Below, in pieces: positions 6,462-57,359 of a stretch of DNA of 64,000 bases. The notes below the pieces were generated by a model. The model was not told where the DNA came from. It ran no database searches and saw only the letters and a list, made by a program, of their open reading frames with translations. The stretch's first letter is position 1. Every line of letters begins with the position of its first letter. Origin of the DNA: a virus; IMG/VR virus record IMGVR_UViG_3300029134_000184, one strand, 5' to 3'. A program made the position numbers and the translations under genes.

Positions 6462-7514
6462 ATGAAAAATTTAAAAAAATCTGTTTTATGCATGCTAATG
6501 GCAGTTGTCATGGTGATGACTGTAACAGCTGCAAGCGTCATTCCGGTTCAGGATGTGTATGCGGCATCTGTGAAGCTGAATAAGACTTCACTTAACCTGT
6601 ACACGAGGACTATGATTCAGCTTACTGTATTAAATACAGGAGCAAAAGCCAAATGGTCATCAAGCAAACCGAAGGTTGCAAGCGTGACAAGTGAAGGTTA
6701 TGTCACTGCCCGCTCTGCAGGAAAAGCAAAGATTACCGCAGTTGTTGGCAAAAAAAAGCTGTACTGCAATGTCACCGTCAATGTTAAACCTGGCGAAGAA
6801 GTGAAGATGGAGTTTAAAGATTGTAAAGTTCAGGTTGGAAAAACTACACGTCTCCGCCTGATGAACATTGTCGGCCTCGCTTCATGGAAAAGTAGCAATA
6901 CAAAAATTGCTACTGTAGACGCGAATGGAGATGTAACAGGAAGAAAAACCGGTTCTGCGACAATCACTGCTACATATCACTGCAAAAGATATACTGCAAA
7001 AGTGACTGTTATATCCGGTACAACGTCTGGAACGTCAGTTATCAGAAGGAAAGCTCCTTTGGCTGACAGCGGTGTGCTGAATGCGTTTGACAAGCTTGGC
7101 TTTAAATATGCTTATGACCCGAATATTACTGGGTTCACAGGCAAATTTTCAGCAAAAGAGCATCGCATCATTGTAAGACGCGAAGAAGATGACTGTATCT
7201 ATCATGAGCTTGGTCATTTTGTAGCATGGGTAGCTGGCGATGTTGACTACAAGAAAGAATGGAAAGCGATTTATGACAAAGAGAAAAGCAAAGTTACATA
7301 TTTCAATAAAGGTTATGCAACACAAAATCCTAAGGAATATTTCGCAGATGCATATAAGGATTATATCCTGCATCGTTCTTCACTGTCTTCAACAAGACCT
7401 TTGACATACAAGTATGTTAAGGCTGCAGTCTCAAAAGTCAATGCAATGACGAGTACTAACTTTGAAAGAATGCATAAGCTGTATGACTCTATGTGGAATA
7501 AATATGGTGCTTAA
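6462..7514 (+). CDS. secreted protein: signal peptide, two Big_2 Ig-like domains, C-terminal HExxH zinc metalloprotease (anthrax lethal factor / PPEP-like)
   Basis: Signal peptide MKNLKKSVLCMLMAVVMVMTVTAASV. Two repeats of the Big_2 pattern (KPKVASVTSEGYVTARSAGKAKITA..). YHELGHFVAW plus downstream EYFADAY is typical of the ATLF-like family. Confidence 0.7.
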   Translation: MKNLKKSVLCMLMAVVMVMTVTAASVIPVQDVYAASVKLNKTSLNLYTRTMIQLTVLNTGAKAKWSSSKPKVASVTSEGYVTARSAGKAKITAVVGKKKLYCNVTVNVKPGEEVKMEFKDCKVQVGKTTRLRLMNIVGLASWKSSNTKIATVDANGDVTGRKTGSATITATYHCKRYTAKVTVISGTTSGTSVIRRKAPLADSGVLNAFDKLGFKYAYDPNITGFTGKFSAKEHRIIVRREEDDCIYHELGHFVAWVAGDVDYKKEWKAIYDKEKSKVTYFNKGYATQNPKEYFADAYKDYILHRSSLSSTRPLTYKYVKAAVSKVNAMTSTNFERMHKLYDSMWNKYGA

Positions 7515-10932: not shown

Positions 10933-11865
10933 CTAATTCTTTAAACTATTCTGAACCCTTTTAACATAAGCAGCTATATGCGGGGCTGTCTGCTCAAGAC
11001 CGTCCGGGTCTTCCAAGCTTAACCTGAAAGCCTCTGCAAAATATTCTGCATTATTGCATATATTCTCATCTTCCAAGTCGTATTTCTGTTGTAAGGCTGT
11101 TGCCTCCGATTCGTGTGATTGGGTGACTACGTTAGAGTCAGAACGCCCGGTAGCTGATACCTGGAAATCTACCGCATGTCCGAGCTCGTGGTAGATGGTA
11201 TCTTTAAGGCTTACGGCATCACATCTGAGATACATTTTCCTTTCATCAATTCCTCCTCCAGATTGTATGTATGTCAGGCCATTGACAACCATTCCTTCAT
11301 CCATGTCAGCGGTTGACTCACCTTCCAGATAAGCGGCGGGATTGTTGCACATACAGATTTCATAACTTTGTAAAATCTGAATGTATTGGTCATCAAGCGT
11401 ATTGAAGATATCTGTGGCAAGTCCGATATACAGATTGCATGCATCGGTTTCACCAAAGATGTTGAAATTGTATTTCTGCGTTTTGCACAAATACCCATTG
11501 TATACGTATCCGAGATTCGTGTAAGACCATTCATCTCCATCATTTCCAAGTATGCTTATTGATTCGCCCTTTTTGTATGTTCCGACAATCGGGCTGTTCG
11601 CATCGGCTGACTGATGGATGTTGAGGTCAGTGACCGTGTAACAGATACCCTCCGGCGGGTCTGGCTTTGTGTTGTAAAGCGATAGGTCTTCAACCGGTGC
11701 GGGCGTTTGTTCGGTTGTCTGTTCCGGTGCTGCCGGCTGCTCCTCAACTATCTGCTGCCCGGAGTCTGAAATTCTCAGGTCTGGCAGGTCTGCCGTTGCA
11801 AATGCCGGTATATTAGTTGTTAAAATTGCTGCTGTTAAAGCAGCAAGTGTAAGTATCTTTTTCAT
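10933..11865 (-). CDS. secreted HExxH zinc metalloprotease (anthrax lethal factor / Pro-Pro endopeptidase-like)
   Basis: Signal peptide MKKILTLAALTAAILTTNIPAFA. TIYHELGHAVDF ... NAEYFAEAF. Paralogue of the C-terminal domain of 6462..7514. RBS AAAAGGAGG. Confidence 0.7.
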   Translation of the reverse strand: MKKILTLAALTAAILTTNIPAFATADLPDLRISDSGQQIVEEQPAAPEQTTEQTPAPVEDLSLYNTKPDPPEGICYTVTDLNIHQSADANSPIVGTYKKGESISILGNDGDEWSYTNLGYVYNGYLCKTQKYNFNIFGETDACNLYIGLATDIFNTLDDQYIQILQSYEICMCNNPAAYLEGESTADMDEGMVVNGLTYIQSGGGIDERKMYLRCDAVSLKDTIYHELGHAVDFQVSATGRSDSNVVTQSHESEATALQQKYDLEDENICNNAEYFAEAFRLSLEDPDGLEQTAPHIAAYVKRVQNSLKN

Positions 11866-11966
11866 TTCTTTCCTCCTTTTGCTGCATATACAATATGCAA
11901 AAAATCCGCAAAAATTTGACAATTTTAAAAACGGCTGTTAAATTAAAAGAAAAAGGAGGTAAGAAT

Positions 11967-12755: not shown

Positions 12756-12797
12756 AAGAAATTTAAATACAAATTTTTACAAAAGGAGGTGTCTTGT

Positions 12798-14168
12798 ATG
12801 GAAATCACTTCAAGTTATCAAATAGAAATCTTATCAAATACGGATATGAAAAACACAGTGCAGATTTACCGCAAGGCACTTGCTTTTGTTATCGATGTAT
12901 GTGATAAAGAATGGGGAAACATTTCTGTTCTCGGTGGCACAAAAGAAAAAGACCACTATGTGGAGAAATTAATCCATCCAACCAAAAGCAATCCAAACCC
13001 TAAATATCCATTTGATATCAAGGGGTCAGAGTTTTATAAATTTCCATCATATCTCAAAAGAGCGGTTATTGCTGAAGCAATCGGTGCTGTAAGCAGCTAC
13101 CACAGTAATTATAAGAACTGGGAAGATAATGGAAAGAAGGGAAAGGCTCCAGCGTTACAGGTAGACAGGCATGCAATGCCGGTGTTCTACAACCAGAACA
13201 TGTACAAGGAAGACGCACCTAAAAATGCCAAATATCCAAAAGACATGAATCCAGGCGACAGCAATATCAGATGGTTAAAGTTATATCAGAATAACGACTG
13301 GGTGTGGGTTCCTGTCAGATTAAGAAAAACTGATATTAATTATATCAATAAATACTGGGGAGCATGTGAAGATAAAAGCGCCCCGGCCTTAGAAAAAATA
13401 CATAACAAATACTACCTGAGATTTTCTTTTACGGAAACCGTAATTTTAAGCGATACACCTATTGCAGAACAGATTATCTGTGCAGTAGACCTTGGAATCA
13501 ATACGGACGCAGTATGCAGCATAATGAAAGCAGATGGAACTATCCTTGCAAGAAAGTTTATCGATTTTACAAGTGACAAAGACCGGATGATTCATGCTAT
13601 GAACAGAACACGCCGTAAGCAGTCCAAGTATGGGCCAAAAAGTGCCAAAAGCCTTTGGGCTTATGTAAAACGCTTAAACGAAGACCGTGCAAAGAAAATA
13701 TCAGCGGCAATCGTAGAATTTGCATCCCAGCATTCCGTAGATGCTATCGTAATGGAGCATCTGGACTTCAAGGGATGCAAGAAACGGGGCAGTAAGGCGC
13801 AGAGATTGTCTATGTGGAATCACGGAATCATCCGTGAGAAGGTAGAGCAAAAAGCGCACCTCCTCGGTATAAGGATTGCGACAATCTGTGCATGGAAAAC
13901 AAGCGCTCTTGCTTTTGATGGAAGTGGAAGCGTTGCCAGAGATGATAATAACCATGCACTTGCAGCGTTCACGACAGGTAAACAGTATAACTGCGACCTG
14001 AGCGCCAGCTACAATATCGGCGCCAGATATTTTATCCGTGAACTCCTTAAATCTCTTCCGGCGACGGAAGAGTCCCGCGTAAAGGCAAAAGTTCCTGACG
14101 CTGGGCGTAGAACCTCCTGTACATTATCAACACTGCGGGCGCTTGTAAAAGAGCTTTCCGCAGCATAG
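12798..14168 (+). CDS. TnpB-like RuvC nuclease with degenerate (cysteine-less) zinc-finger region
   Basis: RuvC-I ICAVDLGINTDAV, RuvC-II AIVMEHLDFKG, RuvC-III YNCDLSASYNIGARYF. The TSQTCxxCG zinc-finger position reads TSALAFDGSG with no Cys pairs. Confidence 0.7.
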   Translation: MEITSSYQIEILSNTDMKNTVQIYRKALAFVIDVCDKEWGNISVLGGTKEKDHYVEKLIHPTKSNPNPKYPFDIKGSEFYKFPSYLKRAVIAEAIGAVSSYHSNYKNWEDNGKKGKAPALQVDRHAMPVFYNQNMYKEDAPKNAKYPKDMNPGDSNIRWLKLYQNNDWVWVPVRLRKTDINYINKYWGACEDKSAPALEKIHNKYYLRFSFTETVILSDTPIAEQIICAVDLGINTDAVCSIMKADGTILARKFIDFTSDKDRMIHAMNRTRRKQSKYGPKSAKSLWAYVKRLNEDRAKKISAAIVEFASQHSVDAIVMEHLDFKGCKKRGSKAQRLSMWNHGIIREKVEQKAHLLGIRIATICAWKTSALAFDGSGSVARDDNNHALAAFTTGKQYNCDLSASYNIGARYFIRELLKSLPATEESRVKAKVPDAGRRTSCTLSTLRALVKELSAA

Positions 14169-15825: not shown

Positions 15826-18800
15826 ATGGATATTAGAACAGAAGAAAGATATGAAGACGATTTTAATCAGGGCAATTTATTCATCATGAAACGTTCAGGA
15901 GAAAGAGTCCCGTTTGATGAAAGTAAAATCGTGAGGGCTATTGAAAAGGCAAATGCCGAGGTAACAATCCCTCTTGAAAAGATGAGTGAGGAAAAGATTG
16001 AAGAAATTGCAGCTCAGATTAAGCGTGATGCAGAAAATGCAGGCAGAGACCTGTCAGTGGAGGAAATCCAGGATAAAGTGGAAGACTCACTGATGATTGC
16101 CGGATACTGCACGCTGGCAAGATTATATATCACTTACAGATATAAACATAACCTTGACAGAAAGAAATCTACACTTGATAAGAAGATTGAAAGCCTTATC
16201 AATGTGAAAGTTAACAAAGACGGCAGCGTAAGCGGCAGCAATGAGGAGGTAAACCAGGAAAACAGCAATAAGGACACAAAAGTACTTTCAGTACAGCGTG
16301 ACTATATGGCTGGTGAGTGGTCAAGGGAGTATACAAGTAGAAACCTGCTTCCGGAAGATGTGGTGAATGCACACCGAAGCGGTCTGATTCATGTACATGA
16401 TACGGATTATATGGCCCAGCCGGAAGGAAACTGCTGTCTCATTAATCTTGAAGACATGCTGCAGAATGAAACCTGTATTTCTGGTACTAAGATTGAAAGG
16501 CCGAAGTCATTCATGACTGCTTCAACCGTTGCAAGCCAAATTATCGCTCAGGTTGCCAGCAGCCAGTATGGCGGTCAGACAATCAGCCTGGCACATCTCG
16601 CTCCGTTCGTTGACATATCAAGACAGAAGATTTTAAAGAGGCTGTCAAAAGAAATGTCCGATATTGGCATTGAAGTAACCGAAGAAAAATTAAAAGAACT
16701 CGCTGAAAAAGAAGTAAGAAAAGAAGTTGAGAATGGCTGTCAGACATTGCAGTATCAACTTATCACTTTACAGACAACAAATGGACAGGCTCCTTTTGTG
16801 ACTGTGTTCATGTATCTGAATGAGGCAAAAAATGAGAGGGAAAAAGAAGACCTGGCGCTTTTGATTGAAGTAATGTTTAAACAGAGAATGCTTGGCGTTA
16901 AGGATAGCAGTGGTTATTATATCACTCCGGCTTTCCCGAAACTGATTTACTGCCTGCAGGAAGATAATATCAGTGAAGATGGTAAATACTGGTATCTGAC
17001 AGAGCTTGCAGCAAAATGTACTGCCAAGAGAATGGTTCCGGATTATATTTCTGAAAAGAAGATGCTGGAGCTTAAAGGGGATGTGTACCCCAGCATGGGA
17101 TGCGTTGATGGAAAAGAAGTTGTAACATATAAATACAACGGAAAAGTCTATGTTGAAGCATTTGAAAGAATGTGGAATAGATTAGGAAAATACTTTGAAA
17201 TCAATCTGCAGGAAAATGGAAAAGACTATGTGATGAAAACCCCTGGCGTTATGATTTATGACCAGTGTAAGGGATTCGTTGATAACTACGGAATTATCAA
17301 AAACCATAATTCCGAATGGCTGCGGATAAGTTTCTCTAACGGAAGGACTATTACTTGTACTAAAGACCATCCATTTGAGACTTGTGACAATCGGGTTGTA
17401 TATGCAAAAGATTTGAAAGAATCAGATTTGATTGCAATTGATAAAACATCCGATTTTGCACCTGAATACACTTATTCCATGAAGACAAATCGTGCATGGC
17501 TTTATGGCTTTACGTTATGTGATTCTACTTATTATGACAGCATCATTGCCTCAATTGCACAGGATGGTGAACAGGAAATCAAAGATATGTTTGTCAATAC
17601 TATCAAAAGCGAATATGGACTTGATGTAACAGATACGGAGAGACACAGAGGAGTTAGAGGTAATTATATTGACTTACTTGTTAATTCTGATGGTACTAAT
17701 ACATACCGTAATCTCAGACTTGATTTGGCATGCTCTTTTGAGGGTAAAGCTAAAAACGACAGGCATATTCCAAATGAAGTTTTTTCCTGGACAAAAGAAG
17801 CAAAGCTTGCATTTTTGGCAGGAATGATTGATGCTGACGGTTATCTTAGTACACATATGAAAAAGGCAAAAATGCTAATTGGCTCAACAAACAAGGAGCT
17901 TGCCATTCAGCAGATGCTTTTAGCACAGTCTTGCGGAATGTTTGCTGTGATTTATCCGAATCGTTATAAAACAAACAGAAGGGATAAAATCAGATATCGT
18001 GTTGAATTCACACCAACTGAAGAGCTGCTGACATTTATCCAGTGTGAGAAGAAAGTAGCTCTGCATGATTCAATCCTTGGAAATACAAATGCAAGCATCG
18101 CGTCTGAGTCAACATGTCATATTACAAAAGTTGAAGAGATAAATGAAGAAGGCTTTAGTTATGATGTTACAACCGCAAGCGAACATTTTACAGTTTCAGG
18201 ACTTTATAGTCATAACTGCAGAAGTTTCCTTACTCCTGACAGATGCAGCGAGAAGGTTGGAAATATCGCTCATGCCCTTAATTATGAAGAGGGTAAGCAT
18301 AAATATTACGGCCGCTTCAATCAGGGTGTTGTAACAATCAATCTTATTGATGTTGCATGCTCATCAGAAGGCGATGAGGACAGGTTCTGGAAAATCCTTG
18401 AAGAGAGACTTAACTTATGCCATAAAGCACTTCGTGCAAAACATGAAAGGCTGCTTGGAACACCGTCAGATGTGGCACCGATTCAGTGGCAGTACGGAGC
18501 ACTTGCAAGGTTAAAACCTGGCGAAGTAATTGACCCGCTGCTGTTCAACGGATATTCAACTATTTCTCTTGGATATGCCGGTTTGGCTGAATGCGTGTAC
18601 TTCATGAAGCATGAATCTCATACTTCTGAAAACGGAAAAGAGTTTGGCTTGAAAGTTATGCAGGCGCTGAATGATGCCTGTGGTAAATGGAAAACAGAAG
18701 AAAATATTGATTATTCTGTATATGGTACCCCGTTGGAATCGACAACGTATAAATTTGCAAAATGTCTGCAGAAACGTTTTGGTAAAATCCCGGGAGTGAC

Positions 18801-19284
18801 AGACAAGAATTATATTACAAATTCCTATCATATCAGAGTAACAGAAAATATCAATGCTTTTGACAAGCTGACAAAAGAAGCAGAGTTCCAGAAACTGTCT
18901 CCTGGCGGGGCAATCTCATATGTTGAGGTGCCTAATATGCAGGGAAACATTCCGGCGGTTCTTGCAATCATCAAACATATCTACAATACAATTCTTTATG
19001 CTGAACTGAATACAAAGTCAGACCAGTGTGAGGCTTGTGGATATAATGGAGAAATCCAGATTGTGAACAAAGACGGCAAGCTGATTTGGCGCTGCCCGCA
19101 GTGCGGATGTACAGACCAGAACAAGATGCACGTTGCCAGAAGGACTTGTGGATATATCGGAACGCAGTATTGGAACCAGGGAAGGACTCAGGAAATCGCA
19201 GAACGTGTATTACACGTATCTGTTGATGAAGATGAATCTGAACAGAAACCAGTAAAAATACTGCCAAAATGTGTTGTTGCTTAA
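15826..19284 (+). CDS. nrdD: anaerobic ribonucleoside-triphosphate reductase NrdD (class III), interrupted by an intein
   Basis: ATP-cone N-terminus. C-terminal zinc ribbon CEACGY...CPQCGC and glycyl-radical motif RTCGYIG. The extein junction PSMG|C...SHN|CRSFL matches the conserved NrdD MGCRSFL block. Confidence 0.9.
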   Translation: MDIRTEERYEDDFNQGNLFIMKRSGERVPFDESKIVRAIEKANAEVTIPLEKMSEEKIEEIAAQIKRDAENAGRDLSVEEIQDKVEDSLMIAGYCTLARLYITYRYKHNLDRKKSTLDKKIESLINVKVNKDGSVSGSNEEVNQENSNKDTKVLSVQRDYMAGEWSREYTSRNLLPEDVVNAHRSGLIHVHDTDYMAQPEGNCCLINLEDMLQNETCISGTKIERPKSFMTASTVASQIIAQVASSQYGGQTISLAHLAPFVDISRQKILKRLSKEMSDIGIEVTEEKLKELAEKEVRKEVENGCQTLQYQLITLQTTNGQAPFVTVFMYLNEAKNEREKEDLALLIEVMFKQRMLGVKDSSGYYITPAFPKLIYCLQEDNISEDGKYWYLTELAAKCTAKRMVPDYISEKKMLELKGDVYPSMGCVDGKEVVTYKYNGKVYVEAFERMWNRLGKYFEINLQENGKDYVMKTPGVMIYDQCKGFVDNYGIIKNHNSEWLRISFSNGRTITCTKDHPFETCDNRVVYAKDLKESDLIAIDKTSDFAPEYTYSMKTNRAWLYGFTLCDSTYYDSIIASIAQDGEQEIKDMFVNTIKSEYGLDVTDTERHRGVRGNYIDLLVNSDGTNTYRNLRLDLACSFEGKAKNDRHIPNEVFSWTKEAKLAFLAGMIDADGYLSTHMKKAKMLIGSTNKELAIQQMLLAQSCGMFAVIYPNRYKTNRRDKIRYRVEFTPTEELLTFIQCEKKVALHDSILGNTNASIASESTCHITKVEEINEEGFSYDVTTASEHFTVSGLYSHNCRSFLTPDRCSEKVGNIAHALNYEEGKHKYYGRFNQGVVTINLIDVACSSEGDEDRFWKILEERLNLCHKALRAKHERLLGTPSDVAPIQWQYGALARLKPGEVIDPLLFNGYSTISLGYAGLAECVYFMKHESHTSENGKEFGLKVMQALNDACGKWKTEENIDYSVYGTPLESTTYKFAKCLQKRFGKIPGVTDKNYITNSYHIRVTENINAFDKLTKEAEFQKLSPGGAISYVEVPNMQGNIPAVLAIIKHIYNTILYAELNTKSDQCEACGYNGEIQIVNKDGKLIWRCPQCGCTDQNKMHVARRTCGYIGTQYWNQGRTQEIAERVLHVSVDEDESEQKPVKILPKCVVA
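17101..18216 (+). mobile_element. intein with LAGLIDADG homing-endonuclease domain inside nrdD
   Basis: Begins with Cys (CVDGKEVV) and ends SHN before extein Cys. Two LAGLIDADG blocks (LYGFTLCDSTYY, LAGMIDADGYLS). Confidence 0.8.
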
Positions 19285-20451: not shown

Positions 20452-21639
20452 ATGCTTGAATTAAAAGGAAAATACAATACCGCAAAGGTTTTTACTGACA
20501 ATGTCGACAACGAGACCATCAGCCAGGTAATAGAACTGCTGAATCAGGACTATATCAAAGACGCGAAAATCAGAATCATGCCTGACTGCCATGCGGGCGC
20601 CGGATGCGTCATTGGGACGACAATGACAATTTCTGATAAAGTATGCCCGAATCTGGTTGGTGTAGATATTGGCTGCGGCATGCTGGCTGTCAGGATTGCA
20701 GAGAAAGACGTTGACCTTCCAAAACTGGATGATGTAATTAATGCATACGTTCCGGCTGGGTTCAACGTTAATGAAGAACCGCTTGGCAATTTCAGCCATT
20801 TGAAGGACTTGGTCGCTCCGGCTGATATATCGCTGGCTTATTGCAGCATTGGAAGACTGGGAGGCGGCAATCATTTTATCGAACTTGATAAAGATGATGA
20901 CGGAAACTTGTGGCTTGTAATCCATACTGGTTCCAGACATCTCGGACTGGAAGTTGCGAAACACTACCAAGAGCTCGCATACAAACAGCTGAAAGATTCA
21001 GATGTTGGCGATAAAATCAAGGCTGTAATTGCAGACCCGAAAGCAAAAGGAAGGAAAAAAGAAATTGAAAAAACAATCCAGGCGTTAAAGATGCACGAGC
21101 CGCATATTCCGAAATCCTTATGCTATGTTTCCGGCCAGGCATTCAAAGACTACATCCACGATATGGAAATTGTCCAGAAGCATGCAGAGTTAAACAGAAA
21201 ATATATTGCCGATACAATCATTGAGAAGATGGGCTGGCATATTTGCGAAGAATTCCAGACAATACACAATTACATTGATACAAAAAATTTGATTCTTCGC
21301 AAAGGTTCCGTGTCTGCACGAGATGGCGAAAAACTGATAATCCCGATAAATATGCGTGACGGGTCTTTGATTTGTATTGGAAAAGGCAATCCTGATTGGA
21401 ATTATTCTGCACCGCATGGTGCCGGAAGGATTTTGTCAAGAAGCGAAGCGAAAGATGCTGTTGGGATTGATGAGTTTCGTGAGTCCATGAAAGGAATATA
21501 TTCTTCTTCTGTAATGGAGTCTACGATAGATGAGTCGCCGATGGTGTATAAGCCGATGGAAGAAATTATGGAAAACATTAAAGACACTGTAGACATTGTG
21601 AAAGTAATTAAACCGGTATACAATTTTAAAGCACATTAG
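20452..21639 (+). CDS. rtcB: RtcB RNA 3'-phosphate ligase
   Basis: RtcB motifs RIMPDCHAGAGCVIG, GVDIGCGM, GGGNHFIEL. Phage promoter motif at 20400..20413. Confidence 0.9.
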   Translation: MLELKGKYNTAKVFTDNVDNETISQVIELLNQDYIKDAKIRIMPDCHAGAGCVIGTTMTISDKVCPNLVGVDIGCGMLAVRIAEKDVDLPKLDDVINAYVPAGFNVNEEPLGNFSHLKDLVAPADISLAYCSIGRLGGGNHFIELDKDDDGNLWLVIHTGSRHLGLEVAKHYQELAYKQLKDSDVGDKIKAVIADPKAKGRKKEIEKTIQALKMHEPHIPKSLCYVSGQAFKDYIHDMEIVQKHAELNRKYIADTIIEKMGWHICEEFQTIHNYIDTKNLILRKGSVSARDGEKLIIPINMRDGSLICIGKGNPDWNYSAPHGAGRILSRSEAKDAVGIDEFRESMKGIYSSSVMESTIDESPMVYKPMEEIMENIKDTVDIVKVIKPVYNFKAH

Positions 21640-28350: not shown

Positions 28351-28503
28351 GTATATGCCTGTAGCTTTTGCTGCAGGTTTTTTTAGTGTGTCACTTTCCT
28401 CTGCGTTTTGCATATTAGCCTTGAGCGAAAAATCCGCAAAAAAATAAGGGTTTTTGAAATTTGCGGCATATTGCGTGCAGAAGAAATAAGAGGTGTAGTC
28501 AAT

Positions 28504-30285
28504 ATGCAGGAGAGAAAATTTATATCATTGGCAGAAGCAAGACCAGATTTGGCAGCAGAATGGAATCATAAAAAAAACGGAATCTTAAAACCAGAAGATA
28601 TAGCGCATAAAAGTGGTAAGAAAGTATGGTGGATTCAAGATGACAAAAATCCTGTTAATGATAAATTAATAAAATTTGAATGGGAGGATACGGTTATTCA
28701 TAGAAGCGTAGATGGTAGAGGAAATCCTTTCAAATCTGGGCCTAAAATATTAAAAGGGTATAATGATTTACAAACAGTAAATCCAGAACTGGCAAAGCAG
28801 TGGCATCCAACAAAAAATGGAAATTTAAAACCAGCCGATGTAACCGCGTATTCTAGGAAAAAAGTATGGTGGTTATTATCATATGATGATGCAAAAACAG
28901 GAAAACATTTTGATTTTGAATGGAAGGCAGCAATTTATGGTCGTCATGACGGAAATGGTTGTCCGTACTTAAATGGTAGAGCAGTGTGGAAAGGATTTAA
29001 TGACTTACAAACAGTAAATCCTGAGTTTGCAAAATTATGGCATCCTACAAAAAACGGAAATTTAAAGCCAACAGATATAACCATTTGCCCTGGCCAAAAA
29101 ATATGGTTGTTGCTGCCGTACGATGATGAAAAGACAGGAAAGCATTTTGATTTTGAATGGGAAACATCAATTAGTAGCCGTAACATACATAATTATAGAT
29201 GTCCATATTTAAGTGGACAAGCAATATGGCATGGATTTAATGACCTTGAAACAACAAATCCAGAGCTTGCAAAACAATGGCATCCAACTAAAAATGGTGA
29301 TTTAAAGCCAACTGATGTAACTGCCGGTTCTGGCAAAAGAGTATGGTGGTTATTACCATATGACGATATAAAAACAGGAAGACATTTTAATTTTGAATGG
29401 CAGGCCATAATTTGTAATCGTAATAAGAATACAGAAGGGTGCCCATATTTATCTGGCAAAATGATATATCAAGGATTTAATGATTTACAAACAGTAAATC
29501 CAGAGCTGGCAAAGCAATGGCATCCAACAAAAAATGGGAACTTAAAGCCAACAAATGTAATGGCGAATTCAAATAAAATTGTATGGTGGATGTATCAATA
29601 TAACAATTTAGATGGAACTCATTTTAACTTTGAATGGAAAGCTAGTATTAACAGTCGGAATAGAGGTAACGGATGCCCGTATTTAAGTGGTCATGCAGTA
29701 TATAGGGGATTTAACGATTTGCAAACAGTAAATCCAGAGTTAGCGAAGCAATGGCATCCGACTAAAAATGGGAATTTAAAGCCAACAGATGTAACAGCTA
29801 ATTCAGAAAAGAAAGTTTGGTGGTTTTTATCGTACAATGATGAAAAGACTGGAAAGAATTTCAATTTTGAATGGAAGGCTATGATATGTAATCGAAATAA
29901 CGGGAATGGCTGCCCATACTTAATGATATATAAGGGAGAAAAATATGTTCATCAGTATTTAAAGAGTAATAATATAAGTTTTATACAACAACAAAAGTTT
30001 TCTGACCTTATTGGTACTGGGGGTGGTTATTTATCTTACGATTTTTCAATACCGTCAAAAAAATATGGGTTAATATTAATAGAATACAACGGCATCCAGC
30101 ATTACGAATCATCTGAATTTTTCGGCGGAGATGAACAGTTGAAAAAGCAAAAAGAGCATGATAGATTAAAAAAAGAATATGCAAAAAAGCATGGATATAA
30201 ATTAATTATTATTAAATATACATATGATTCTTATGAGAGTATATCTGAATACATGGCAAAAGAATTAAAAAAAATAGAAATATGA
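28504..30285 (+). CDS. repeat protein: eight ~60-aa DUF4379-like (degenerate zinc-ribbon) repeats plus C-terminal Vsr/DUF559-like PD-(D/E)XK endonuclease domain
   Basis: Repeated block LAKQWHPTKNGNLKPxDVTxxSxKKVWWLLxYDDxKTGKHFxFEWxAxIxxRxxGNGCPYL, 8 copies. C-terminus YDFSIPSKKYGLILIEYNGIQHYE..GYKLIIIKY resembles the Vsr-like nuclease core. Confidence 0.55.
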   Translation: MQERKFISLAEARPDLAAEWNHKKNGILKPEDIAHKSGKKVWWIQDDKNPVNDKLIKFEWEDTVIHRSVDGRGNPFKSGPKILKGYNDLQTVNPELAKQWHPTKNGNLKPADVTAYSRKKVWWLLSYDDAKTGKHFDFEWKAAIYGRHDGNGCPYLNGRAVWKGFNDLQTVNPEFAKLWHPTKNGNLKPTDITICPGQKIWLLLPYDDEKTGKHFDFEWETSISSRNIHNYRCPYLSGQAIWHGFNDLETTNPELAKQWHPTKNGDLKPTDVTAGSGKRVWWLLPYDDIKTGRHFNFEWQAIICNRNKNTEGCPYLSGKMIYQGFNDLQTVNPELAKQWHPTKNGNLKPTNVMANSNKIVWWMYQYNNLDGTHFNFEWKASINSRNRGNGCPYLSGHAVYRGFNDLQTVNPELAKQWHPTKNGNLKPTDVTANSEKKVWWFLSYNDEKTGKNFNFEWKAMICNRNNGNGCPYLMIYKGEKYVHQYLKSNNISFIQQQKFSDLIGTGGGYLSYDFSIPSKKYGLILIEYNGIQHYESSEFFGGDEQLKKQKEHDRLKKEYAKKHGYKLIIIKYTYDSYESISEYMAKELKKIEI

Positions 30286-30586
30286 TAAAAAGAAGGAATC
30301 TTAATGGGAATAAGAAAAATATTGGAAAAAGAAATGAGCAAAAGCGGTGGCCGGGCGGAACTGGTGAAGGTTCCGCCGGAAAGAAGGCCGAGCAAGGAAT
30401 CGCTGGACAGGCTGAACCGGGATGTTGAAGGGCTGGTGAGGATGACTGGGAATCAGGTGGGAAAATAAGGGATGTGAGCGAAAAAAGTGAAAAAAGATAT
30501 GGAAGACAAAAACCCGCGCTTGACTAAAGTTCCGAAGTATGCGGCGATTGGTAAACTGTATCACGAGAAAGAAAAGAGGATTGAGG

Positions 30587-30817
30587 ATGATGACATTTAA
30601 TGAATTGTTAGAAGTAACAAAAGACATAGACTTAGAGGCCCTTGGGGTTTCCCTCGGTAAAGCAGCAAATAAATGTGACATGATTAGCTGCTTTGTGGAT
30701 GGAGATGAATGGGTCATGCAAGAAGTAGACGATAGACAGCATGTTTTCGAAAAAAGGGGTAAAGAAGAGGATATTGTTAGAAAGGTATACGGAAATATTA
30801 AACTTAGAATTCGATAG
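30587..30817 (+). CDS. small hypothetical protein in a degraded patch
   Basis: RBS GAGGATTGAGG before ATGATG. No promoter motif. Adjacent fragment 30509..30601 (KLYHEKEKRIEDDD) copies the C-terminus of 32142..32858. Confidence 0.3.
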   Translation: MMTFNELLEVTKDIDLEALGVSLGKAANKCDMISCFVDGDEWVMQEVDDRQHVFEKRGKEEDIVRKVYGNIKLRIR

Positions 30818-31064
30818 CAAAAATAATAATACTATTCCCATATTCTAATATGATTTTATCTAACTTTAGTGCAGAAAACCCCATCCGACGAAGTAACAAT
30901 ACTCCTTGTTACGTAGTCGGGTGTGGATGTTCAAGTTTAGCCGACGTCTAGGTCCAATAGCCGGAGGCTTCTTTTTTTTCTAAAACTTTCTGAATTCCAG
31001 TAGAAAAAATTTCCCGCATATTAAGTGTATCTAACAATACATGTCCAAGAAAGGAAGAAAAAAT

Positions 31065-31241
31065 ATGCAGAACAATACATTTGAATCTCGCCGCCGCCTT
31101 GAGAAAATGCCGTTTGATAAACGCTTTGATGTTGACGGAAACTCTGAACTCTGCCACGCAACCGGATATGAGGTGTTTGATGGTGAGGACTGGTGGGATG
31201 AGTTCGTGGATTCTAACGGAGATTTCCAGTATGGAAGATAA
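31065..31241 (+). CDS. small hypothetical protein
   Basis: Phage promoter motif at ~31020. RBS AAAGGAAG. Start position uncertain by +/-1. Confidence 0.4.
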   Translation: MQNNTFESRRRLEKMPFDKRFDVDGNSELCHATGYEVFDGEDWWDEFVDSNGDFQYGR

Positions 31242-31294
31242 CTCCGGGAAGCAATTTTGCCTGTAGAAATTCTGCAGGCAAAATTTAAGCAGGG

Positions 31295-31323
31295 CTTGAT
31301 TTTTTCGCTCTGCTGATGTATAC
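31295..31323 (+). promoter_or_regulatory. sigma70-type promoter (TTGATT-17-TATACT) for a short + strand RNA
   Basis: Canonical hexamers with 17-nt spacer. No ORF downstream (ATG TAA only). Confidence 0.5.
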
Positions 31324-31329
31324 TATATT

Positions 31330-31421
31330 AAAAGGAAGCCGAGTAAACGGTTTATCCCAATATTACTATAATGTAATTTTATTTTTTCCGTCGTCTATTG
31401 GCCGTAGTCGACGGTTTTTTC
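31330..31421 (+). ncRNA. ~90-nt sRNA, antisense to the 3' end of the - strand peptide gene (candidate type I antitoxin)
   Basis: Transcript predicted from promoter 31295..31323 to terminator CCGTCGTCTATTGGCCGTAGTCGACGG+TTTTTT (31389..31421). Overlaps codons ~37-49 of the opposite-strand ORF. Confidence 0.4.
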
Positions 31422-31528
31422 TTATGCTTACGCTTCTTCTTGCGGTTCTTCTTATTTGTGCGCCAAAGAAATTCTAAACATTGGAGCTCGATAAGGAACA
31501 ATGCAATAATGAATGATGCTTCAGACAT
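31382..31528 (-). CDS. 49-aa hydrophobic/polybasic peptide (type I toxin-like)
   Basis: Hand-translated MSEASFIIALFLIELQCLEFLWRTNKKNRKKKRKHKKKPSTTANRRRKK. Excellent RBS GGGAGGTGATATTATG. Not in the ORF track because <60 aa. Confidence 0.5.
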
Positions 31529-31636
31529 AATATCACCTCCCTTGTATAAAATTCAGGAGAGTGACCTCCCCCGTAAGCAAGGTTAACTGCTACAAGAGAG
31601 ATAAACCGTCTACCGCAATTCGGCTTCCTGATAAAT

Positions 31637-31665
31637 ATTATACCAAATACTGAAAGATAACGCAA
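31637..31665 (-). promoter_or_regulatory. sigma70-type promoter (TTGCGT-17-TGnTATAAT) for the - strand peptide gene
   Basis: On the - strand: TTGCGTTATCTTTCAGTATTTGGTATAAT, i.e. an extended -10. Confidence 0.5.
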
Positions 31666-31782
31666 ACAAAAATCTACACAATACCGCCTGCTTAAATTTT
31701 GCAGGCAATTTTTTTTGCAAAAAAATAATCTGCCAGTCAAAAAATCCGGCATATTAAATATAAAGAAAAAGGAGGCAAAAAA

Positions 31783-32142
31783 ATGCCTGAAAAAATATTA
31801 ACAATCGATAATTCAACATTTTTTGTAACCTGCCGCATCGGCGAAGAGCTGCAGGATGTACAGAGTATTCAGTGGTTCTTGGCTGGAGATAATCAGAGAC
31901 TTCTTGCAGACCAGACCTGCCAGTCTGTAATCCTGGATGCCGCCTGGATTGCCAAACAGGCAGAAGGAAAATGGCTTGGCTGCCGGTATATTCTGGACGG
32001 AATAAAATACGAAAAAATGCTGTGTTTCCTGTCCGGTGACCTGATGACACTGCTGAAACGGAATTCTTTCGACCGTATTGATGTATGTGATACATATGGA
32101 AATACAAAAGATGTATACACAAAAAAAAGGAGTGAAAAATAA
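31783..32142 (+). CDS. hypothetical protein
   Basis: Phage promoter GCATATTAAATATAAAG at ~31747. RBS AAAGGAGG. Confidence 0.5.
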   Translation: MPEKILTIDNSTFFVTCRIGEELQDVQSIQWFLAGDNQRLLADQTCQSVILDAAWIAKQAEGKWLGCRYILDGIKYEKMLCFLSGDLMTLLKRNSFDRIDVCDTYGNTKDVYTKKRSEK

Positions 32143-34996: not shown

Positions 34997-35434
34997 ATGC
35001 GTAAAAAAATATTATTACTGACACTTACATTATCCGCAGTAGTGATGACATCCGGCTGCGGCTGCGGTAAGCCAAAAACAGTTGAGGAGGATATCGTAGC
35101 TGAAAGCGAGAAAAAAGATACAGTTGATATAACGGCTGACCCAACCGATTCGCCGACACCGACAATTAAGACGGAGGATGACTTTACGGAAGAGGATTTC
35201 AAAAACACGGAATATGTCACCATAGATAACGTAAACGTGAGGGCAAACCCGGATGCAAATTCTGACATCATCAGCAGCATGGAAAAAGGGTCACGGGTTA
35301 AGGTATCCGGACGAAAAGAGGATAAAGAAGGCAATAAATGGTACAAAGTATCTGCTGATGATTCGGGCACGATTGGATACATGTCGACGAAATATGTTAA
35401 CATTGTCCATAAGAAAGGAGATACAGCAAAATGA
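34997..35434 (+). CDS. lipoprotein with SH3b-like domain
   Basis: Signal/lipobox LSAVVMTSGCGCG. C-terminal VNVRANPDANSDIISSMEKGSRVKVSG..WYKV resembles the bacterial SH3. Confidence 0.55.
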   Translation: MRKKILLLTLTLSAVVMTSGCGCGKPKTVEEDIVAESEKKDTVDITADPTDSPTPTIKTEDDFTEEDFKNTEYVTIDNVNVRANPDANSDIISSMEKGSRVKVSGRKEDKEGNKWYKVSADDSGTIGYMSTKYVNIVHKKGDTAK

Positions 35435-37203
35435 GAAAAGGCAAAGACCCAAACAAGAAGCCACCGACAAAAAGACAGAAGATTATCTGGACTTCATTCA
35501 TCGTAATCTGTGTTTTGATGATAGCGGTAATGATATGCGGAGTTTTCGGGCTTAAGAAAGCAAAGCTATTTAAAGATAGTGCCAAGGAAGTTAAATATGA
35601 AAAATTCCTTGAAATGATTGATGACAAAAAAGTCAAAGACATCAAATGGTCAGAGGATGAAGAGACCATCACTTTCAGCGACAAGAAAGATAAGTCTTAT
35701 ACAACAGCCAATCCGAAATATGAAGACTTTAAAAAAGATATGCTTGAGAAAGGCATTGAAGTGAAAGAGACAAATGGCCTTGGAAAATACGAAACACCGA
35801 TTATGATGGGCGTGCAGATGCTGATGTATATCATTCTCTTCGCGATTATGATTAAATGTACCGGCATGGGCTCATTAATCTCCCCGAAAGAGGCAAAAGA
35901 AGCAGAAAGTAATGTCAAGTTTAAAGATGTTGCCGGTCTGGAAGAGGTCAAGGAAGACCTGATGACAGTAGTTGATTTCTTAAAGAATCCTGATAAATAT
36001 AAAGAAGCCGGAGCTGAGATTCCGAAAGGTATTCTCCTTTATGGCCCTCCAGGCACTGGAAAAACACTCCTCGCAAAGGCTGTTGCCGGTGAGGCTGGTG
36101 TAAAATTCAAAGCCGTTTCCGGTTCTGACTTTGATGAAAAATATGTAGGCGTTGGAGCCAGCAAGATGAGAAAGCTTTTTGATGACGCAAAATCAAATGC
36201 GCCATGCATCATTTTCATTGACGAGATTGATTCAATGGGAGGAAAGAGACATTCAAAACAGAGCAATTATGACAGACAGACATTAAATACACTGTTATCT
36301 GAAATGGATGGCTTTGATGGAAGTAATGGCGTAGTTGTTATCGCTGCAACAAACAGACTTGAAGACCTTGATTCAGCACTTACCAGACCGGGAAGATTTG
36401 ACAGCCATTTTGCAGTAAGTCTGCCGGCGACAGCAAAAGAGAGAAAGCTTATCATCAACCTGTATGCAGAAAACAAGAAATTTGCAGAAGACGTTGATAT
36501 GGAAGCGTTTGCAAAAGAAACTATTGGAAACAGCCCGGCATCAATCAAGACTACATTAAACGAAGCGGCAATCATTGCAGCGAGAAGAAATAATGGTATT
36601 ATCAACCGTGAAATCCTTGATGAAGCATGGATGAAACAGCTGATGGAAGGACACTTAAAGAAGAATGCCGATAAAGACAATATTGAACTTGTCGCATGGC
36701 ATGAAGCAGGACACGCCCTGGCTGGTCTCCTGATGGGACAGGATTTAACAAAGGCTTCAATCATTCCGTCAACTTCCGGAGCAGGTGGAGCTACATTTAT
36801 CACCCCGAAGAAGCTTGGCCTGTTTACCGTTGATGATTTGAGAGAGCAGGTGGTTATGCTGTATGCCGGAAGAAATGCTGAACGGCTTTTTGCAGCAGAG
36901 AACAATATGACAGAAAACGGCGTCACAACAGGAGCTTCAAATGACATTGAGAAAGCGACAGGTATCATCAAAAAGATGATTACCGAATACGGAATGAGTA
37001 AAAAATTCGGTCTGCTTAACCTTGAAGAGCTTGATGTAAAACCTGATGTGATTACCGAAGAGGCAGTTAAGCTTGCTGAAGAATTAAATGAAGAATCTTT
37101 CAACCTAATGAAGGACAATGCAGACAAGCTTAAAAAGATTGCTGAAAAACTCGTAGAAAAAGAAACTTTAACAGGAAAGGAGATAAAGGAGATTGCAGGA
37201 TAA
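35431..37203 (+). CDS. ftsH: FtsH-like membrane-anchored AAA+ zinc metalloprotease
   Basis: N-terminal TM. Walker [31 protein letters not shown], zinc site HEAGHAL. Confidence 0.85.
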
Positions 37204-37921: not shown

Positions 37922-37937
37922 GCATATTGTATATGTA
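37922..37937 (+). promoter_or_regulatory. element-specific promoter motif GCATATTGTATATGTA preceded by TTTGCGAAAAAA upstream element
   Basis: Consensus. Upstream TTTTTTTGCGAAAAAACTTTG... Confidence 0.45.
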
Positions 37938-37959
37938 CAATTTGAAAGGAGGTGTTGTT

Positions 37960-38688
37960 GTGACAAAAGAAGTAGCAGAGCTTCAAAAAATAATTGATAA
38001 TCACGACAATATTGTATTCTTTGGAGGCGCCGGAGTATCAACCGAAAGCGGCATCCCTGACTTCAGGAGTAAAGACGGGCTATATAACCAGAAATACAAA
38101 TACCCACCGGAGACAATCCTGAGCAATATGTTTTTCTACAGACGTCCGGAAGAATTTTTCAGGTTCTACCGCGATAAGATGATTTGCGATACAGCAAAGC
38201 CGAATGCAGCTCATTTAAAGCTTGCAGAGTTAGAGCATGCCGGAAAGGTCAAGGCGATTGTCACACAGAACATTGACGGCCTGCACCAGATGGCCGGCAG
38301 TAAGAACGTGCTTGAACTACATGGCAGTATTTACAGAAATCACTGCAAAAAATGCGGCAGGGAATACGGTCTTGATGCTGTAAAGAATTCCGAAGGAGTC
38401 CCGAAATGTGAATGTGGAGGGATAATCAAACCAGATGTGGTGCTGTATGGCGAAAACCTGAACGACGATATTATGAACAGGGCAGCAAAAGCAATCAATG
38501 AAGCCCAGGTACTTATTGTCGGAGGCACATCTTTGTCAGTATGGCCTGCCGCAAGTCTTATCGATTATTTCCGCGGTAATCACCTGATAGTGATTAACAA
38601 AACCCAGGCTGAGAGAGACTCGTTTGCAGACCTGGTAATCCGTGAACCTATCGGTGAGGTTTTTTCGCAAACTGTGGCGAAAAAATAA
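37960..38688 (+). CDS. cobB: Sir2-family NAD-dependent protein deacylase (CobB-like)
   Basis: FFGGAGVSTESGIPDFRS and zinc ribbon CKKCG..CECGG. GTG start 7 nt after GGAGGTG. Confidence 0.75.
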   Translation: MTKEVAELQKIIDNHDNIVFFGGAGVSTESGIPDFRSKDGLYNQKYKYPPETILSNMFFYRRPEEFFRFYRDKMICDTAKPNAAHLKLAELEHAGKVKAIVTQNIDGLHQMAGSKNVLELHGSIYRNHCKKCGREYGLDAVKNSEGVPKCECGGIIKPDVVLYGENLNDDIMNRAAKAINEAQVLIVGGTSLSVWPAASLIDYFRGNHLIVINKTQAERDSFADLVIREPIGEVFSQTVAKK

Positions 38689-45554: not shown

Positions 45555-46409
45555 ATGAAAAAGAACCAAAAAATAGGAGCAAAAGAAAGTAAGCGTAAAA
45601 AGAAAAAGAAAAAAGGAATATCAGCCAGCGATATAGTGCTGATGCTGATATTTATAGTAGCGCTTACAGTAGCTGCTTTTGCCGGATACAGACTGTATTC
45701 TATCATGATGGAGTACAAAGCCGGCGTTGATGAGTATTCCCAGATTGCCGACACGGTAGTCAAGGAAAGGGATGCTGACAAAGAAAAAATCAAGAAACTG
45801 AAAGATGCAGAAACAGGCGAAGAAGTCAAGCACTGGGAATCACCGCTTGATATCGACTTTAAGGAACTTAAATCTATCAACCCGGATGTAGCCGGATGGA
45901 TATATATGGAAGCTCTTCCTGATATCAGTTACCCGATTGTTCAGGGTGATGACAATGAATTTTATTTACACCATACTTATAAGAAGGAATCCATTTTTGC
46001 AGGCTCGATTTTTGTTGACTGTAAGAATTCAAAAGATTTCTCTGACCAGAACACAATTGTGTATGGTCATAACATGAAAAACGGCTCTATGTTTGGAACC
46101 CTTAAAAACTACAAGCTGCAGGAGACAGTAGATAAGAGCCCTTATTTCTGGATTATCACGAAAAAGGATGCATATAAGTACAAAATCTTTTCAATATATA
46201 CCGCCAATGTTGACGGCGATACATATACCTTAATAAAAGGCCCTGGAAAGGAGACCGTTGAGTATGCAAATAATATGAAAGCAAAATCCAATATTGATAT
46301 GGGTGAGTTTGACTTTAAGGAAACTGACAAAATCGTCACGCTGTCAACCTGCACCGGAGACACAGCGACAAGATTTGTTGTCCAGGGAGTGAGAGTTGAA
46401 CCGGAGTAA
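45555..46409 (+). CDS. srtB: class B sortase
   Basis: N-terminal TM. Catalytic His in YGHNM and Cys in LSTCTGD (TLxTC motif). RBS-poor but preceded by phage promoter at ~45417. Confidence 0.75.
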   Translation: MKKNQKIGAKESKRKKKKKKGISASDIVLMLIFIVALTVAAFAGYRLYSIMMEYKAGVDEYSQIADTVVKERDADKEKIKKLKDAETGEEVKHWESPLDIDFKELKSINPDVAGWIYMEALPDISYPIVQGDDNEFYLHHTYKKESIFAGSIFVDCKNSKDFSDQNTIVYGHNMKNGSMFGTLKNYKLQETVDKSPYFWIITKKDAYKYKIFSIYTANVDGDTYTLIKGPGKETVEYANNMKAKSNIDMGEFDFKETDKIVTLSTCTGDTATRFVVQGVRVEPE

Positions 46410-56086: not shown

Positions 56087-56395
56087 ATGAAAAAGACAAT
56101 GTATTCTGCAATGAAAAACCTAGCGGAATATATTGCTGCAAGCCAGTCGTCTGACTTTGATGGAATATGGGATGAATGGAGCAGCAAATATAAACCGGAA
56201 GATTATATGGAATTACCGCTTAGGAAAATGGGAATGCAGTTATGTCAAATAGACAAAGCTGAGATAAAGAGTGTGCCAGAAAGAAGCTATAGAGACACAA
56301 TTAAAAAGACGTTAAAACCTGGAATTAATAAGGAGGAGTTCGAAAATGAGCGAGAAGAATACTTCAAATCAGCAAGATACGACGAAGCAGAATGA
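56087..56395 (+). CDS. hypothetical protein
   Basis: Two promoter motifs upstream (56020, 56032). RBS AAGGAGG. Confidence 0.45.
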   Translation: MKKTMYSAMKNLAEYIAASQSSDFDGIWDEWSSKYKPEDYMELPLRKMGMQLCQIDKAEIKSVPERSYRDTIKKTLKPGINKEEFENEREEYFKSARYDEAE

Positions 56396-57359
56396 AAAAT
56401 ATGATGTTGTATATAATAAAAATTCAGGATACAGCCAGAGCGAAGTTACGAAACTGATAAAAATATATCATATGGCGATGGCAGCCGGAGATAATGTAAC
56501 CGTGCAGGATGCTTATACAAAAATATACTTTTTTATTGCAAAGTATGTATATAAAACACTGTGGGGCAATTACCATACATTAATGCAGAACAAGTACCAC
56601 CGTGAAGATATAGTCCAGGACGTGTGGGTAAAAATTTTTAATGAGCTGAAAAACTTTGACCCGGACAAGGGTGCCCTCACTACTTTTATTACTCCGTGGA
56701 TAAAGCACGTTGTGTCAGATTATGCAAGCAAAAACTTCAGAAAGACTTCAGTTTATTATGCGAATGCTATGACGAAGATAAATGGAGCCCAGAACTATTG
56801 CAAACAGTATGGTTTAAATTCAGATGATATTGAGACAATCATGAGTCTGACAGGATTGTCAGAAGCGACAGTAAAAAATACTCTTGATATTATGTCTAAA
56901 AAAGACAGCGTCTCATATGAAGCCTTAATTGATGCCGGTGCTGATTATGTTACACAGATTAAAGGGCCTGAGGAGTCAGTAATTGAAGCAGAATCAGAAC
57001 GTAACCTTGGGGAGCTTCTCAGGGATGTGTTAACTGATGAAGAACTGCAATTGTTATCACTACTGCTTAATCCGGAAAACGCAAACAAAAAGCATTCAAG
57101 CTACCGTGAAATCGCTGAACAGATTCCGGGAAGTAATATTCCTAAAATCAAGAGAAAGATTTCAAGGATAACTACAAAACTTAAAAACAATGAAAGATTT
57201 GCCCAGATGTATCCATACATTATCGCGCAGGAAAAAGCGCTTGAGGATAATTATATTCCAGTGCTGGATGATACAGATGAGGTTGATGAAATGTATGAAA
57301 ATTTTGACGATATTGATGTAAATGATGGCTGGAGCAAGGCAAAAAAGAAAAAGAAATAA
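56346..57359 (+). CDS. sigma-70-family factor (region 2 and region 4)
   Basis: DIVQDVWVKIFNELKNFDPDKGALTTFITPWIKHVVSDYASKNFRK (region 2-like). Region-4-like HTH SYREIAEQIPGSNIPKIKRKISRITTKLK. Confidence 0.55.
   Translation: MSEKNTSNQQDTTKQNEKYDVVYNKNSGYSQSEVTKLIKIYHMAMAAGDNVTVQDAYTKIYFFIAKYVYKTLWGNYHTLMQNKYHREDIVQDVWVKIFNELKNFDPDKGALTTFITPWIKHVVSDYASKNFRKTSVYYANAMTKINGAQNYCKQYGLNSDDIETIMSLTGLSEATVKNTLDIMSKKDSVSYEALIDAGADYVTQIKGPEESVIEAESERNLGELLRDVLTDEELQLLSLLLNPENANKKHSSYREIAEQIPGSNIPKIKRKISRITTKLKNNERFAQMYPYIIAQEKALEDNYIPVLDDTDEVDEMYENFDDIDVNDGWSKAKKKKK

Follow-up and report, generated by a model that had tools for sequence, protein, structure and literature searches.

Type I toxin-antitoxin modules are hard to find, since the toxin and the RNA both escape annotation, and to our knowledge nearly all characterised examples originate from a few cultured species. 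We analysed a stretch of 64,000 nucleotides (nt) from the IMG/VR virus record IMGVR_UViG_3300029134_000184 (hereafter the window), in which the spacer of 540 base pairs (bp) between two + strand genes, encoding proteins of 66 amino acids (aa; 31041-31241) and 119 aa (31783-32142), holds a cassette composed of a small peptide gene on the - strand and a convergent antisense RNA on the + strand. Based on comparison with related sequences, this cassette is probably a type I toxin-antitoxin-like moron in which the two genes overlap at their 3' ends, located within the terminator of a phage gene.

The hallmarks of the type I modules carried by Clostridioides difficile and Bacillus subtilis prophages are a hydrophobic N-terminus, a lysine-rich tail, a convergent antisense RNA and location in a phage (PMC6563280, PMC7699646, PMC5848175, PMC8309996). 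The toxins of the C. difficile phage modules are 30-56 aa in length, hydrophobic at the N-terminus and rich in lysine in the tail, and the modules stabilise prophages (PMC6563280, PMC7699646), whilst a positively charged cytosolic C-terminus is general in type I toxins (PMC8309996). The window's cassette resembles the C. difficile modules CD0956.2/RCd10, CD0977.1/RCd11 and CD0904.1/RCd13 in peptide size, hydrophobic/lysine-rich layout and an AGGAGG-type ribosome-binding site (PMC6563280, PMC7699646), and likewise in its convergent overlapping antisense RNA, its sigma-A-type promoters, the several paralogous modules per phage and the association with phages of gut Firmicutes. In contrast, no sequence similarity to the window's peptide was detected, and the link of the C. 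difficile modules to CRISPR (clustered regularly interspaced short palindromic repeat) arrays and c-di-GMP riboswitches is not present for the window's cassette.

Convergent genes with a 3' overlap are also the arrangement of yonT/SR6 and bsrG/SR4 of SPbeta and of txpA/RatA of the skin element (PMC5848175, PMC6562991, PMC3531473). Further points of likeness to these B. subtilis modules are an antitoxin of ~100 nt, a membrane peptide as toxin, carriage by prophage-like elements and a duplex expected to be a substrate of RNase III. The C-terminus of YonT is strongly basic. A resemblance to txpA/RatA and bsrG/SR4 had been proposed in a preceding sequence-only reading of the window, and it passes all tests possible from sequence. 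Nonetheless, the window's peptide family is unrelated to those of B. subtilis (no Pfam or NCBIfam match), its two RNAs share a 5' stem-loop, and the terminator of its small RNA is translated as the peptide tail. The par system of Enterococcus (fst, RNA I/RNA II) is similar in that its genes converge toward a shared terminator, its two RNAs have repeated sequence close to their 5' ends and its ribosome-binding site is sequestered.

The cassette was compared with ~70 related loci from human-gut metagenomes, 60 of which were retrieved by a metagenome scan with the neighbouring 238-aa protein, and ten, which lie in other gene neighbourhoods, by a look-up of peptide homologues. The comparisons support the presence of every type I feature that can be tested in sequence, namely a small peptide, an overlapping antisense RNA and an occluded ribosome-binding site; the peptide appears to belong to no known toxin sequence family. 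The features of the locus are as follows, where A, B and C denote the three main peptide types.

31253-31285, + strand: terminator hairpin of the upstream 66-aa gene (a palindrome, seen also in empty-site relatives)
31279-31314, - strand: palindrome AGCAGGGC/GCTCTGCT (31288-31314), then UUAAAUUUU, enclosing the -35 box of the small RNA
31282-31699, no strand assigned: inserted cassette of 418 bp (from comparison of occupied and empty sites)
31296-31324, + strand: small RNA promoter, TTGATT-17-TATACT, sigma-70-type (promoter scan)
31331-31421, + strand: predicted antisense small RNA of ~90 nt (covariance model match at 31333-31423, 98 bits, E 6e-18)
31379-31528, - strand: gene for the 49-aa peptide, encoding MSEASFIIALFLIELQCLEFLWRTNKKNRKKKRKHKKKPSTTANRRRKK
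31529-31629, - strand: predicted structured 5' untranslated region of ~100 nt (minimum-free-energy fold and consensus structure)
31533-31541, - strand: Shine-Dalgarno site GGGAGGTGA (aligned; conserved in types A, B and C)
31637-31665, - strand: toxin promoter, TTGCGT-17-TGgTATAAT, with an extended -10 (read from the sequence)
31686-31716, + strand: re-created terminator, GCCTGC-TTAAATTTT-GCAGGC followed by T8, the right arm of the outer inverted repeat

The peptide family and its predicted structured messenger RNA

The open reading frame (ORF) of 49 codons that the sequence-only reading had proposed on the - strand, together with its ribosome-binding site, was found with GGGAGGTGA upstream and is conserved in relatives. 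Ratios of nonsynonymous to synonymous polymorphism (pN/pS) of 0.13-0.35 were obtained over the first 35-38 codons of divergent pairs, and judged from these comparisons the ORF is a real gene under purifying selection. Across both strands of the whole window, it is the sole ORF that unites a Shine-Dalgarno site, a length of 22-65 codons, a hydrophobic stretch and a basic tail. The three main peptide types, A (that of the window, MSEASFIIALFLIELQCLEFLW...), B (MRMYEKLALELTALAFLFQCIRFIWKIEIERYKMRKKK...) and C (MLELAVTISAFAFVLKCLKFIWKVEQDKQDKNKKK...), have C17, F20, W22 and the motif KKKP as invariant residues. The first ~22 residues are hydrophobic (Kyte-Doolittle maximum of 1.99 over 17 residues) and residues 23-38 are polybasic; the tail has a net charge of +17. 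An AlphaFold2 model consisted of one long helix spanning residues 3-36, with predicted local distance difference test scores of 88-95 for the first 20 residues, and an unstructured tail of low confidence. Read on the opposite strand, the small RNA terminator supplies the codons of the last 11 residues; the tail beyond KKK has this origin, and in relatives it changes frame (KKKPSTTANRRRKK to KKNRRLLPIDDG). This origin and the frame switching indicate that the functional peptide comprises ~38 residues.

Searches for the peptide among known families, which the sequence-only reading had recommended, were unproductive: neither Pfam nor NCBIfam returned a match below E 0.1. With tblastn, none of 50,697 phage records was matched at E values up to 10, and a profile of the peptide detected no relative among representative genomes of 185,579 species. 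A word-indexed search of 5.8 billion proteins retrieved 40 unnamed relatives, and when 1.84 billion representative proteins were searched exhaustively with HMMER there were 10 matches, all of the same family. In the tblastn and HMMER searches, weak matches to the C. difficile toxins may be concealed by the low-complexity filter. One related contig was present in IMG/VR, nothing similar was found in collections of isolate phages and plasmids, and the region itself matched no member of the phage collection in blastn. Two motif scans were discarded: the first, of IMG/VR, yielded only chance matches within coding regions (L001-L004), and that of representative genomes returned at least 120 loci in diverse phyla, which were attributed to chance as none of those listed exceeded ~25 bits with the small RNA model. 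By these searches the family, designated QC-x-F-I-W, is new and previously undescribed, and is known from uncultured human-gut phage-like elements alone.

The two promoters that had been read from the sequence, an extended -10 promoter on the - strand and a canonical one on the + strand, are both conserved in relatives. The former was skipped by the scanning tool as its -35 box matches at only 3/6 positions, yet its pattern TTGC..TG.TAT..T is invariant in 12 divergent cassettes. Promoter-like sites in the region are not in excess (4 found against 5.7 expected), and since matches to the promoter consensus are thus not above chance, the weight of the case comes from conservation in relatives. 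The Shine-Dalgarno site GGGAGGTGA is located 4 nt ahead of the ATG, with its GGAGG core 7 nt from it. The leader is made up of a 5' stem-loop module, an anti-Shine-Dalgarno strand (31591-31605) and two enclosed hairpins, of which one (31554-31573) is terminator-like. In the minimum-free-energy fold, UUUAUCUCUCUUGUA pairs with the Shine-Dalgarno region, and this helix (helix 2) was 99.2% paired, against 50-62% in slid controls; the 12 sequences compared represent types A, B and C and include compensatory changes. The covariation supports a leader that would sequester its own Shine-Dalgarno site.

At the other end of the transcript, the palindrome at 31279-31314 is a candidate 3' end or terminator for the toxin mRNA, or alternatively an operator in the DNA. 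The equivalent hairpin of type C (L024) is a clean terminator on the toxin strand, with a U5 run and z = -4.9, and compensatory variants of the -35 palindrome occur in L024 and L053.

These data bear on whether the locus could be an ordinary intergenic bidirectional terminator with a chance ORF, an explanation that we regard as extremely improbable. Its appeal lies in the last 11 codons, which are the terminator reversed and vary by frameshift, and in the chance-level frequency of promoter-like matches. It is opposed by the pN/pS values and by the retention of ORF, Shine-Dalgarno site and leader in three diverged types and in unrelated contexts. Additionally, a T-run accompanies the hairpin on the + strand but not on the - strand, and sites without the cassette demonstrate that the region is unnecessary for termination. 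The sequence-only reading had named conservation of the region in relatives as a simple bidirectional terminator as grounds for rejecting its proposal; in the relatives with an empty site there is a single terminator.

The antisense RNA and one-sided decay

A + strand RNA of ~90 nt, with a terminator overlapping the 3' end of the peptide gene, had been anticipated from the window alone, and 52 full copies of it were recovered in relatives. It is the most conserved part of the cassette. Its predicted parts are a 5' stem-loop (31334-31357), a middle hairpin (~31362-31377), which varies in sequence and persists as a hairpin, and a terminator hairpin (31388-31414) followed by T6, lying within the 3' end of the ORF. 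Amongst 37 distinct copies, 96.6% of cells in the structure were paired and 7 pairs had changes on both sides, and the G-U pairs are consistent with the + sense alone. The TTGA of the -35 box and the -10 box are kept in 33 distinct upstream sequences. A search of Rfam with the region and the whole window gave no family at threshold, the best hit being the terminator-like ncr1015 (E 0.5). A + strand ORF of 53 aa at 31316-31477 was rejected as a gene, as it starts upstream of the predicted transcription start site, has no ribosome-binding site and crosses the terminator.

Both the toxin mRNA and the small RNA start with the same stem-loop module. The segment GGAAGCCGA..ACGGTTTATC is present in exactly 2 copies in the 64 kb, in convergent orientation, against 0 expected, so the earlier observation that promoter and leader are inverted copies of one another was correct as far as the DNA is concerned. 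It must be amended with respect to the RNAs, which are identical in these modules and not complementary, and hence would not pair with each other there. This distinguishes the cassette from par, in which the 5' repeats are direct in the DNA and give complementary RNAs, whereas the inverted repeats of the cassette give same-sequence RNAs with no pairing above chance. Pairing in trans of the toxin leader with the non-overlapping 5' half of the small RNA was considered and rejected, with RNAduplex energies within the shuffled range for types A, B and C; a par-like mechanism, or an anti-Shine-Dalgarno one in trans, was rejected on the same grounds. The only strong complementarity to the toxin mRNA is in the 3' 42 nt of the small RNA, which lie inside the ORF, and it would extend over the whole small RNA if the mRNA reaches the -35-box palindrome (31288-31314).

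Taken together, a type I mechanism can be proposed in which a host-type RNA polymerase makes a toxin mRNA of ~350 nt from the extended -10 promoter. This mRNA would encode ~38 functional residues, forming a helix of which the N-terminal ~20 are hydrophobic and the end is polybasic, and the 11-residue extension would result from the ORF reading through the terminator of the antisense RNA. Pairing of an upstream CU-rich strand with the Shine-Dalgarno site would leave the primary transcript poorly translated. The complementarity of the ~90-nt RNA is perfect over the final 42 nt of the ORF, and would take in the whole 3' untranslated region should the mRNA extend to the -35-box hairpin. As in yonT/SR6, bsrG/SR4 and txpA/RatA, the resulting duplex would cause the toxin mRNA to be cleaved, with RNase III as the probable nuclease, and to decay. 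The peptide would build up and harm the membrane only once the shorter-lived small RNA is no longer made, and the common 5' stem-loop probably shields the 5' ends of both RNAs. As the toxin gene always opposes the phage genes, read-through from these would add antisense RNA and not toxin expression. Maintenance, exclusion or abortive killing are possible roles.

The 52 copies of the small RNA comprise 39 with an intact toxin ORF, 12 orphans and one facing a frameshifted toxin (L053), and no toxin without a small RNA was encountered among the relatives examined. The orphans had originated through deletion or replacement of the toxin, and promoter, 5' stem-loop and terminator are intact in all 12. 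Such one-sided loss is expected if the peptide is harmful without its RNA, and we consider this argument suggestive. The orphans could also be cited for a second explanation, under which the cassette chiefly serves to make the + strand RNA, with targets in the host or phage on which it acts in trans, and the ORF is a secondary passenger; the standing of this RNA as the best-conserved cassette part would agree with this. Against it are the purifying selection on the ORF, its conserved Shine-Dalgarno site and the covariation in its leader. Furthermore, orphan antitoxins are also expected from the decay of toxin-antitoxin modules, and pairing with the toxin leader did not exceed shuffled controls, no search for other targets having been made. 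We consider a trans-acting RNA with a passenger ORF improbable.

Insertion into a terminator and replacement in relatives

In 14 relatives the site is empty, with the hairpin of the 66-aa gene followed directly by T8 and then by the promoter region of the 119-aa gene; the single hairpin directly before T8 is seen in the empty-site loci L021, L024, L033-L042 and L048. In the window, the cassette lies between the terminator stem and the T-run, such that the original T8 of the 66-aa gene is now on the far side of the insert, and a direct repeat of 9 bp, TGCAGGCAA, is found at 31273-31281 and 31700-31708. Comparison of occupied and empty sequences confirms the earlier suggestion of an inserted cassette, in the form of a phage moron with predicted promoters and terminator of its own that is absent from close relatives. 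It had also been remarked that the cassette does not use the promoter of its carrier, and this was borne out, as its promoters are of host type in an element with a motif of its own, AAAAATCCGGCATATTA. GC skew is negative only at 31300-31800, and is positive over the rest of the region.

The sequence-only reading had further described the unit as bounded by an imperfect inverted repeat. The repeat exists, with arms of 21 nt at 31273-31293 and 31687-31707 that are 90% complementary, and its left arm is the tail of the hairpin enclosing the small RNA -35 box. It is not a general boundary, however, being absent from cassettes elsewhere: the repeat AATTTAAGCAGG occurs at this one site only, and the right end is without it in L010, L015, L018, L019 and L026. 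The CGCCTGCAG..CTGCAGGCG terminator hairpin is instead repeated in full at the right flank of L010, L019, L068 and L070. The conserved core extends from the -35 box of the toxin to that of the small RNA. This core is also found upstream of the 66-aa gene in many relatives, and in others it adjoins unrelated genes, including a TnpB fragment, an RNase H gene, a SocA_Panacea gene and type I restriction-modification genes. Whatever the neighbouring genes, the core runs antisense to them. The TnpB fragment beside the toxin cassette in L069 is Cas12f1-like.

Inverted repeats of 21 nt at both ends and a 9-bp direct repeat at the junctions would be in keeping with a non-autonomous transposable element of the miniature inverted-repeat type, with a target-site duplication, or with an invertible promoter segment. 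Either would be difficult to reconcile with the confinement of AATTTAAGCAGG to one site and to some copies there, and with the flanks of the copies lacking it, in which the terminator hairpin is present a second time. Moreover, at least 30 assemblies all have one orientation, no transposase or invertase is adjacent and the neighbouring proteins are without a recombinase domain. We deem such an element very improbable. The closer parallel is with morons and the PeSL cassettes of T4-like phages, which are autonomous units between two phage genes with presence/absence and replacement polymorphism (PMC2839356, PMC4122927) and with junctions in short conserved promoter or terminator sequences. The cargo here differs, being a putative antisense-controlled toxin module that would be transcribed against the phage genes, and the recombination mechanism is presumed.

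The slot is a hot spot. Replacement polymorphism was evident in L005-type relatives, in which the type A toxin gene and its leader have been swapped for another module, with junctions at the small RNA terminator and the toxin -35 box, leaving the original small RNA as an orphan. The replacement module comprises the gene of a 31-aa Hol-Tox/PepG1-like peptide, MYISYSDLVQTGIFIVALIGLCYTIFKGKKK, a separate convergent RNA and a terminator for both directions, and the mRNA and small RNA of this module share the 5' module GGGAA.C.AAAGA..GGCCTACC. This peptide occupies the same slot in L005 (IMGVR_UViG_3300029091_000057, 3470-3900), L012, L013, L015, L016, L025 and L059. With respect to the Hol-Tox (PF16935), TxpA-BsrG and PepG1 families, MYISYSDLVQTGIFIVALIGLCYTIFKGKKK matches PF16935 at E 6e-5 (23.2 bits, where the cut-off is 23.3) and PepG1 at E 4e-4, whereas the window's peptide matches none.

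A different change was noted in five contigs (P0035; L045 1195-1205), where a 16-nt deletion removes the 3' arm and T-run of the small RNA terminator. The peptide tail in this variant becomes ..KHKRPIDDGKNKITL, and the antisense RNA would traverse the whole toxin gene.

Alternatively, the peptide could be a small membrane protein that is not toxic and serves the phage in some other way, for example in superinfection exclusion, in the timing of lysis or in modulating the host. The RNA would then only tune its expression, and the layout would match a type I module with neither post-segregational nor abortive killing involved. This would suit an accessory unit with host-type promoters in an element that has its own promoter motif, the charged residues in the helix and the absence of any sign that the element is temperate. 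It would not account for the repeated loss or frameshifting of the toxin half with retention of the RNA, for the Hol-Tox/PepG1-like toxin of the same design in the slot of relatives, or for the tight sequestration of the Shine-Dalgarno site. We consider a non-toxic membrane protein unlikely, and retain the type I module as the probable interpretation.

Several observations nevertheless count against a type I module. Two glutamates lie in the hydrophobic helix of the window's type, and charged residues occur in all types, so the helix may be amphipathic rather than membrane-spanning. Pfam, NCBIfam, tblastn and HMMER profile searches revealed no sequence similarity to any characterised toxin. 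The mRNA on the window's - strand has no clean intrinsic terminator, and the fold of 31272-31335 is ambiguous. Since the terminator overlaps the ORF, the lack of RNA-free toxins is partly forced by the layout. A classical 'addiction' role would demand a resident element.

More tentatively, the cassettes may constitute a shuffling system, in which modules sit in phage gene terminators and recombine at short shared promoter and terminator sequences, with the unrelated QC-x-F-I-W family and Hol-Tox-like peptide interchangeable on a scaffold in which an inverted duplication of promoter plus 5' stem-loop drives toxin and antitoxin alike. The orphan small RNAs might then provide 'anti-addiction' immunity against the toxins of competing relatives. 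We put this forward as a possibility, and a rather doubtful one.

The known concept of how type I modules function is unchanged by these findings. The locus represents an unusually complete comparative case, combining a gene under selection, a covarying leader, a conserved RNA, empty sites, swaps and one-sided decay, and its relatives form a natural variant series for studying the movement and turnover of such modules in phage genomes. As a tool, the peptide is a candidate for use in counter-selection or as an antimicrobial.

The carrier element and neighbouring genes

A second cassette site was recognised at 30487-30976 of the window, where relatives harbour a type B or C toxin/small-RNA module. 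The window retains a remnant of the -35 palindrome, CCCGCGCTTGACT (~30514-30526), and a terminator of the small RNA type (30937-30976, 20.5 bits). Between these remnants are a + strand ORF of 92 aa and a stretch of 58 nt in which the 3' portion of the 238-aa gene is partially duplicated.

The element is large, with related contigs of up to 190 kb, and nearly all of its genes are on one strand. The motif AAAAATCCGGCATATTA occurs in 12 copies, all on the + strand, against ~1 expected (window 12451-61834), and copies at 31007-31023 and 31740-31756 flank the cassette, both ~20-25 nt upstream of a gene. A protein with sigma-70 region 2 is encoded at 56346-57359 and a region-4-like protein at 5459-6340; the motif together with these sigma-like proteins suggests that the element has its own promoter class. 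ARAGORN found no tRNA or tmRNA.

Other genes of the element encode SecY (3836-5152), FtsH (35431-37203), RtcB (20452-21639), a Sir2-family protein (37927-38688), a sortase (45555-46409) and an NrdD-like reductase (15826-19284). The SecY homologue is full-length (PF00344, E 2.5e-83), and this translocon subunit is unusual cargo for a viral contig. Two homologues of TnpB/IS605 OrfB-like transposases (PHROG 506) are located at 16-1485 and 12789-14168, and just upstream of the cassette region is a 625-aa protein (28408-30285) with six DUF4379 treble-clef zinc-finger repeats. Finally, two proteins (6462-7514 and, on the - strand, 10933-11922) combine ATLF (anthrax-lethal-factor-like) metalloprotease domains with Ig-like or SH3 domains in fusions, and the gene of the latter protein is among the few on the - strand of the element.

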